From Sphyrna mokarran (taxonomy: Eukaryota), in the NCBI GenBank assembly GCA_024679065.1, contig JAGIQG010000010.1, forward strand, positions 62,744,001 to 62,808,000: a stretch of 64,000 nt of DNA, in the 5' to 3' direction. A model generated the notes under the pieces. It did not search any database. It was not told the origin of the DNA and saw only the letters and a list, made by a program, of their open reading frames with translations. A program made the position numbers and the translations under genes. This document shows positions 38,443-38,641 of the stretch, one piece after another. Within the stretch, counting starts at the first letter, position 1; the number at the start of each line of letters is the position of its first letter.

Positions 38443-38641
38443 GCCATTTCGGCCTTTTGGCTAAGATGAAGTGTCCGATCAAGTCCAAGATGGGGTGCAA
38501 TCTTGTCAGCGTGGATCCTGATTGTCGCTCACATGGGAACCATGAATTGGATTCAGAAACATTGGGCTGGTCGTTGGATCCAGTGCAGCAGCAGCGCAGC
38601 TTTGATTTTGTTGGTCTGGAATAGGACCGCTGCTCCTCCCA
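38443..38641 (+). pseudogene. U2 snRNA-derived element (rearranged pseudogene, variant or SINE)
   Basis: 38449-38474 TCGGCCTTTTGGCTAAGATGAAGTGT matches vertebrate U2 nt 9-34 at 25/26. Colinear downstream matches: TCTTGTCAG...CTGAT (stem IIa), TGGAATAGGA (38617-38626) and TGCTCC (38631-38636, stem III). Confidence 0.8.

Follow-up and report, generated by a model that had tools for sequence, protein, structure and literature searches.

A decayed mosaic of U1, U4 and U2 snRNA pieces, most likely the relic of an independently arisen SINEU-like retroposon in a non-amniote genome

Retroposons headed by pieces of spliceosomal snRNA have so far been described only from crocodilians and only with U1 and U2 as donors. 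According to the excerpted text of Kojima 2015 (PMC4494074), from which our statements on these SINEU elements are drawn, they were built by the recurrent 5' addition of U1 and U2 pieces, with partial duplications within the elements. SINEU-2 combines a 5' U1 part with a 3' U2 part, and SINEU-3 keeps U2 nt 1-32 and then skips about 50 nt (PMC4494074). The 5' ends of SINEU do not match the 5' end of the snRNA, the elements contain internal oligo-T, and, no internal promoter being present, the manner of their transcription is presented as an open question (PMC4494074). They are further characterised by many dispersed copies of one structure, a 3' poly-A tail and a target-site duplication near 10 bp in length, occasional among old copies. 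Tx1-Mar is the probable partner of SINEU, with Mariner-N4_AMi as the preferred target, and the excerpts of the same report record no SINEU detected outside crocodilians (PMC4494074). The retrotransposons Keno and Utopia are given, in the excerpted text of PMC4640811, as inserting between U2 nt 38 and 39. In the literature that we searched, mostly as titles and the openings of abstracts, no retroposon with an snRNA head was described from any group other than crocodilians or with U4 among its parts, and an entry in Repbase, Repbase Reports or Dfam is possible.

The DNA analysed here is a stretch of 64 kb, called the window as a whole, in which an initial annotation had marked a U2-like feature at 38443-38641. 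This feature is real, and it is just the 3' half of a larger element that starts about 150-160 nt further upstream. Positions 38290 to about 38649 form a decayed mosaic of about 360 nt that is made of pieces of three snRNAs, U1, U4 and U2, all on the same strand. Hand alignment and simulated nulls gave the block order U1-U1-U4-U2-(U2)2-U2. The U1, U4 and U2 pieces each lack the first 8-10 nt of the source snRNA, and the mosaic also possesses short internal duplications and one displaced segment. The mosaic, known from one copy and hand alignments, is most likely the relic of an independently arisen, non-amniote SINEU-like retroposon, and may belong to a family or be a one-off.

The references were human snRNAs, not those of a shark, and included the U1 and U2 sequences printed in section 60 of bioRxiv 10.1101/2021.08.01.454689; in the excerpted text of that source the printed records after U2 run together and are unlabelled. 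All of the snRNA alignments were made by hand except those of Rfam, and U2 was also checked against the Rfam consensus. Alignments were scored with match 2, mismatch -3 and gap 5+2, and the computed nulls used random sequences matched in length (libraries of snRNA size). We take the third printed record to be U4 and the others to be U5, U6 and U11. The U1 and U4 calls are hand alignments to these printed human snRNAs combined with simulated nulls. Rfam returned no match at gathering score in the whole 64-kb window; its sub-threshold results were 17.1 of 46 bits for U2, 7.7 of 69.5 for U1 and none for U4, and other sub-threshold matches (CRISPR, miRNA, lncRNA, leader) were set aside as noise. 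Pooled over the good blocks, the identity to the source snRNAs was 84%.

The 5' end of the mosaic, at 38290-38317 (+), aligned by hand to U1 nt 9-38, comprising the 5' arm of stem I and a degenerate loop I; U1 nt 1-8, which pair with the 5' splice site, are not recognisable. Within this block, U1 9-28 matched 38290-38308 at 17/20 with a score of 21; in the 50 nt that precede the following block, 5 of 5000 random sequences scored as high. The second block, at 38317-38362 (+), covers U1 nt 50-95, that is, stem-loop II and the start of stem III, by hand alignment and a weak Rfam match, and U1 39-49 is missing between the two. The loop II heptamer is intact at 38333-38339, and the alignment of U1 53-95 to 38321-38362 (34/43, score 37) was equalled by none of 1500 random libraries. 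Rfam aligned U1 positions 49-91 to 38317-38357 (7.7 bits, E 7.2), a match reported in one of the three Rfam searches covering the region at E<=10. The segment missing upstream is found displaced: U1 nt 37-51, the 3' arm of stem I, lies at 38363-38377 (+; 14/15, score 25), and its score was reached by 4/5000 in a conditional null. This arm is still pairable with 38296-38308 in a predicted duplex of -13.3 kcal/mol. A 10-nt inverted repeat (38287-38296 / 38696-38705) that recalls the U1 closing helix was rejected, because another perfect 10-nt pair exists in the same 800 nt.

The next piece, at 38382-38423 (+), aligned by hand to the record that we take to be U4. It consists of U4 nt 11-20 (9/10), an insertion, and U4 nt 23-45 from the 5' stem-loop / kink-turn region, the latter matching at 20/23 with a 15/15 core at 38401-38415. 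Of 1500 random libraries, 3 equalled its score of 31 across 601 nt, as did 2/5000 within the 71 nt that separate U1 from U2, and the Rfam U4 model gave no match at E<=10 over this piece. A 25-nt linker at 38424-38448 (+) follows, partly complementary to the U2 23-34 copies described below and to 38391-38400 (8/8 inverted repeat 38425-38432 / 38464-38471; predicted helices). Likenesses to U5 (10/10 at 38681-38690), U11 (38550-38587) and U6 (38200-38234) scored at most 20, a value reached by 1008 of 1500 random libraries, and were rejected. By eye, faint likenesses to U6, U11 and U5 at 38200-38234, 38550-38587 and 38675-38690 are likewise each at chance level.

Within the U2 part, the only strong match is the first block. 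U2 nt 9-34, comprising stem I and the U2/U6 helix I segment, matches 38449-38474 (+) at 25/26 as first annotated, the single change being at U2 position 28; the block gave the Rfam U2 match of 17.1 bits, and its score of 47 was reached by none of 1500 random snRNA-sized libraries. The branch-point segment U2 33-38 does read GUCCGA, at 38473-38478. The roughly 17 extra nt reported after it are correct as a net count, as 26 nt at 38475-38500 (+) replace the 9 nt of U2 35-43 (the branch-point recognition region), but they are not of foreign origin: the unit U2 23-34, 12 nt long, is repeated there twice more, in decayed form and in exact register. The unit is triplicated in tandem, with starts at 38463, 38475 and 38487 and with 11/12, 8/12 and 8/12 matches to U2. 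Of 127,928 positions in the window, 6 show a 12-nt periodicity as strong as this.

Beyond the triplication, 38501-38553 (+) corresponds to a more diverged, older stretch of U2, nt 44-101, recognised by hand (14/22, 8/17 and 6/6) and with no Rfam match. Stem IIa resumes where the initial annotation had placed it, at 14/22 ungapped between 38501-38522 and U2 44-65, with both arms kept (8/9 and 5/5) and the loop replaced (1/8). This match is modest (77 of 20,000 random 22-mers equal it over 40 offsets, before correcting for the choice of segment), stem IIb is as degenerate as described (8/17, weak), and U2 96-101 lies at 38548-38553. The next interval, 38554-38616 (+), holds a 50-nt insert, marked by a direct repeat, and, by hand, an Sm-site-like run at 38604-38610. 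Repeats of 10 nt recur here at a spacing of 27 nt (38547, 38574 and, weaker, 38601; direct repeat 9/10), which suggests an internal duplication around the Sm site. After this second insert, stem III appears as claimed: U2 nt 117-139, the distal part of the stem, fall at 38617-38639 (+), with U2 117-126 matching at 10/10 (38617-38626) and 130-135 at 6/6 (38631-38636). When random sequences of U2 size were compared with the downstream 200 nt, 98 of 5000 attained the score of 21. Stem IV is absent, none being seen by eye.

The covariance check that had been proposed, with Rfam RF00004, aligned the 5' part alone, at 17.1 bits against a gathering score of 46 (E 2.1 and 0.19), and it failed over 38495-38650, where nothing was reported at E<=10. 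A unique copy with no downstream covariance score had been named as evidence against the first reading; half of this was found, in that the downstream half is without a score. With a score below 46 bits under RF00004 and with the branch-point recognition sequence, the canonical IIa loop and stem IV lost, the feature is not a U2 snRNA, either by the Rfam threshold or by its functional segments.

The 3' end of the mosaic is marked by no long A run: the search for poly-A yielded five A only, at 38651-38655, inside a 24-nt inverted repeat of a possible later insertion. In this tentative MITE-like insertion, at 38642-38798, a direct repeat of 8 nt (38642-38649, 38791-38798) encloses the 24-nt inverted repeat. 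Its arms are 20/24 complementary (0/500 in the null) and its fold z-score of -2.85 was reached by 2 of 200 shuffles; the right arm stops 6 nt short of the direct repeat, and the arms are not flush. The segment possibly hides the true 3' end of the mosaic. The best flanking direct repeat that might be a target site duplication (TSD), 9/10 at 38283/38696, was equalled by 52 of 150 random segments, which is chance level. Neither a LINE-derived tail nor a Tx1 body was found near the mosaic, and the nearby ORFs contained no Pfam family. A second, more degraded U2-like unit may exist at 38809-38879 (+), with U2 113-125 at 12/13 (38852-38864) and an 8-pair hairpin (38857-38879). Its score of 21 was reached by 256/5000 in the null, its likeness to the first unit is not significant (37-77 of 500), and Rfam reported no U2 match in it. 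A miRNA-like hairpin with a z-score of -1.15 is another fold of the same 38809-38879 stretch, where Rfam matches stayed below threshold.

No second copy of the mosaic was found within the 64-kb window using blastn and nhmmer, which returned short chance matches only, and the flanks of the mosaic matched no other repeat in the window. A 22-nt junction pattern had no exact match in GTDB contigs, a result that says little; plasmids gave two weak unrelated matches (E 0.2 and 0.6) and phages none. Translations of two frames over the mosaic, used as a proxy for mis-annotated copies, revealed no candidate protein. Two long repetitive proteins with scores summed over 26 and 9 stretches, at about 4-6 bits each, were taken as chance.

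The closest described elements are SINEU-1 to SINEU-3. Like them, the mosaic joins U1 and U2 parts in sense orientation, with U1 5' of U2 as in SINEU-2, contains internal duplications and is shorter than 500 nt, and as in SINEU-3 its U2 is broken just before the branch-point region. It shares with SINEU an internal oligo-T (here T4 runs at 38435, 38455 and 38606) and the lack of a visible internal Pol III promoter; the window contains no tRNA gene, so the mosaic has no tRNA-type head. Unlike SINEU, it has a third donor, U4, a displaced U1 stem I arm and insertions instead of a deletion in U2, and its host is a non-amniote with V-SINEs. The commonest repeat of the window, with six copies at 17825-18137(+), 28186-28509(+), 35190-35505(-), 24286-24559(-), 53108-53381(-) and 18764-18977(-) and a pairwise identity of 61-76%, shows by eye the head and V domain of Ac1-type V-SINEs, and we take it to be probably the HE1 of sharks and rays. 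V-SINEs are absent from amniotes according to the excerpted text of PMC6887750, and therefore the host is not a crocodilian. It is probably a shark or ray; the chondrichthyan setting suggested at first is consistent with this, and what the V-SINE comparison itself backs is a non-amniote. The 5' region of the mosaic derives from U1, as a SINEU head derives from U1 or U2, and its distribution is not crocodilian. It is built like SINEU and is not assigned as a member, given the host range, a U4 donor undescribed in SINEU and the one copy in the window. The choice of SINEU as the closest model was sound, and the newly found U1 and U4 pieces add support to it; the description as a U2-derived SINE is too narrow, since U1 and U4 are also donors. 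In addition, the mosaic shares the U2 5' region and the order IIa, IIb, Sm-like site and III with U2 snRNA (RF00004), U2_sat of Ciona and U2 genes disrupted by Keno or Utopia. It differs from all of these in its 17.1/46 bits, the loss of the branch-point region and stem IV, its non-tandem arrangement, and a break that is not at nt 38/39.

On balance we lean towards reading 38290-~38649 as an old dead copy of a SINEU-like retroposon that was built by serial 5' addition of snRNA pieces in a non-amniote host. A U2 retrocopy would have given rise to a master element whose transcription presumably started in the DNA flanking it. A LINE reverse transcriptase prone to template switching, of the Tx1/Keno type by analogy, may then have added 5'-region fragments of U2, U4 and U1 onto the 5' end, in successive rounds between which the U2-derived core would have been re-transcribed. 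Slippage back over 12-27 nt at the junctions could have produced the short duplications. The master was perhaps tolerated because its 5' splice-site, branch-point and U6-pairing segments had been lost, and one descendant would have inserted at this locus and then decayed as methylated DNA. At least three joins and several internal rearrangements seem improbable in one insertion, which argues for a lineage rather than a single event, as in the excerpted argument of PMC4494074. The same orientation of the pieces is an expected outcome of template switching or RNA ligation (bioRxiv 10.1101/2025.02.02.635956, excerpted text). Against serial 5' addition, the U1 pieces (79-85%) are less like their source than U2 9-34 (96%), while the newest 5' pieces would be expected to be the best kept; the single copy in 64 kb, the chance-level TSD, the missing LINE tail and the failure of Rfam to see U4 also count against this explanation.

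A SINEU-like family that evolved independently and includes the first part derived from U4 has, in our judgement, slightly the better of an even chance, before allowing for an existing Repbase or Dfam entry. If such a family is true, it would be a second independent origin, in a fish-grade lineage and with U4 added, and the serial capture of spliceosomal RNAs would be a repeatable route to SINEs. It would also offer another system for asking which LINE acts, where transcription starts and whether masters need to lose their splicing-active segments. If the mosaic is a one-off, it is a curious minor pseudogene.

The one-off alternative is that one or a few insertions at one locus brought the snRNA fragments together and no family ever formed, making the mosaic a unique chimeric retropseudogene, and we regard this as rather unlikely though well worth weighing. 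It could have arisen by template switching or by tailless retrocopies landing in an older U2 retrocopy via microhomology. Such a landing would also duplicate U2 23-34, and tailless copies prime where the target complements the RNA at the truncation point, as stated in the excerpted text of PMC5322556. The single copy in the window fits this origin, and so does the greater divergence of the 3' U2 part relative to the 5' U2 part, as one would expect had a later insertion entered an older copy. However, several rare events would be needed at one spot, and a IIa loop replaced on a kept stem, together with other helix-keeping changes, fits a period as a transcribed master better than it fits neutral decay, although global folding is not significant. 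Described snRNA/LINE-1 chimeric and tailless retropseudogenes of mammals and lizards resemble the mosaic in being 3'-truncated sense snRNA pieces that are dead on arrival. They are, however, single snRNA pieces, alone or joined to L1 or Alu, with TSDs, whereas the mosaic joins at least three snRNAs and is internally rearranged. The initial view that the feature is not a plain 3'-truncated U2 pseudogene was right, and the U1 and U4 pieces strengthen it.

It is improbable that an autonomous Tx1-clade LINE, its body now lost or beyond recognition, left the mosaic as its snRNA-derived 5' head. LINE copies are usually 5'-truncated, and a head without a body is the rarer product, which counts against this origin; in addition, no coding remnant was detected downstream of the mosaic. 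In its favour, the possible MITE obscures the 3' end, and four crocodilian Tx1-Mar families (Tx1-2_Crp, Tx1-2B_Crp, Tx1-4_AMi and Tx1-11_Crp) carry U1- or U2-derived 5' ends, that is, snRNA 5' fragments gained by template switch (PMC4494074, excerpted text). Unlike those LINEs, the mosaic has no adjoining LINE body that we could find.

Decay at the locus bears on any functional reading. The segments lost are U1 1-8, U4 1-10 and all of U4 after about nt 52, U2 35-43 and U2 stem IV, and position 28 of U2 is changed. Pairing with the 5' splice site, with U6 and with the branch point is the role of these segments. Among nine human-reference CpGs in the aligned blocks (hand count), two are kept, five now read TG, CA or TA, and two are otherwise changed; two of the five methylation-type changes fall in the weakly aligned IIb. 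The U2 9-34 block (25/26) is not significantly better kept than the other blocks (P 0.067), so selection on it need not be invoked, and the 84% identity of the mosaic blocks is comparable to that of the neighbouring V-SINE copies with one another. Promoter scans with the octamer motif placed the nearest exact octamers at 34145 and 40024, with none between 34152 and 40024 and none within 1.5 kb. A U2-type proximal promoter element (about -60; distal element about -220) was not seen by eye. Global folding of the mosaic is unremarkable (z 0.50, 0.27, -0.65 and -1.31, the last reached by 10 of 45 random tiles); for 38376-38646 the z-score of the minus strand was -2.35, a value that 3 of 45 tiles also attained, and the arm complementarity around U2 stem I was equalled by 63/2000. 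Because of the CpG decay, the loss of every splicing-active segment, the absence of a nearby octamer and the unremarkable folding, we interpret the mosaic as a dead DNA copy. As part of the SINEU-like explanation, the locus is probably repeat debris with no present activity.

Some local features might nevertheless be read as structural constraint. The new IIa loop is pairable with 38577-38587 in an IIc-like helix (-14.6 kcal/mol; 4 of 2000 random windows and 15 of 2000 shuffles; helix probability 0.6), and the change at U2 position 28 lengthens stem I (predicted helix probability 0.91). Such kept or compensated helices could reflect selection on a master RNA, selection on a functional RNA, or after-the-fact picking. 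It is with little conviction that we consider an expressed structured ncRNA, either a variant snRNA or an exapted mosaic, that would bind snRNP proteins with no splicing role. Its putative binding parts, on this doubtful premise, would be U1 loop II, the U4 5' stem-loop and the Sm-like site. A bolder form, to which we assign only a slight chance, is that the mosaic is a conserved transcribed RNA of cartilaginous fish, a three-snRNA fusion built by retroposition that serves as a scaffold or decoy for snRNP proteins. Such an RNA would, on the same slender odds, have dropped the segments that pair with pre-mRNA and U6 and kept its protein-binding loops and compensated helices. The intact U1 loop II heptamer, the displaced U1 arm that still pairs, the kept IIa arms with a pairable new loop and the extended stem I are in accord with it. 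However, the fold z-scores, the CpG decay, the distance of the nearest octamers and a changed kink-turn G (U4 43) argue against it, and the IIc-like pairing, singled out in hindsight, has a palindromic core that is complementary under any duplication. A variant U2-like snRNA, as once suggested for the feature, is poorly supported given the CpG decay, no octamer within 1.5 kb and the loss of all pairing segments.

Least probable is the disruption of a U2 gene or pseudogene by a Keno or Utopia element, most of which was then deleted. In its favour, 4 nt separate the break from the nt 38/39 site that the two share, and reptile Utopia makes 20-bp duplications (PMC4640811, excerpted text). Against it, and contrary to the link first drawn, the break comes after U2 nt 34 and not at 38/39, the extra bases at the junction repeat U2 23-34 in units of 12 nt, nt 35-43 are gone to either side of the expected site, and this origin leaves the pieces of U1 and U4 unexplained. 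The register of the triplication already largely refutes it.

The surrounding window is non-coding vertebrate DNA of about 40% G+C. Pfam searches covered 166 of the 184 ORFs of at least 68 aa, and none scored above a curated cut-off, so no host gene was detected among them. Imperfect inverted repeats, 70-79% identical and 78-255 nt long, lie at 21565-21788/22503-22757, 3754-3853/4076-4173 and 51099-51175/51983-52060, and are possibly opposed copies of repeats or the termini of DNA transposons of a non-autonomous type. An ORF fragment at 27039-27374 (+) had 8 protein relatives among 11 candidates, at 58-66% identity, and a related stretch at 63196-63326 (-); it resembles what we take to be the C-terminus of a CR1-type LINE protein. 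At 50060-50545 (-), a match to PF22307 of 17.7 bits, below the cut-off of 27, is probably chance, and the frame looks to us like an antisense reading of what is presumably a LINE reverse transcriptase remnant. In the interval 30001-34000, perhaps an old minus-strand LINE, the GC skew is strongly negative (about -0.3), and 33829-33946 carries 2.6 tandem copies of a 46-nt unit. Finally, a tandem duplication of about 150 nt, with 71% identity between its units, is present at 53655-53948.
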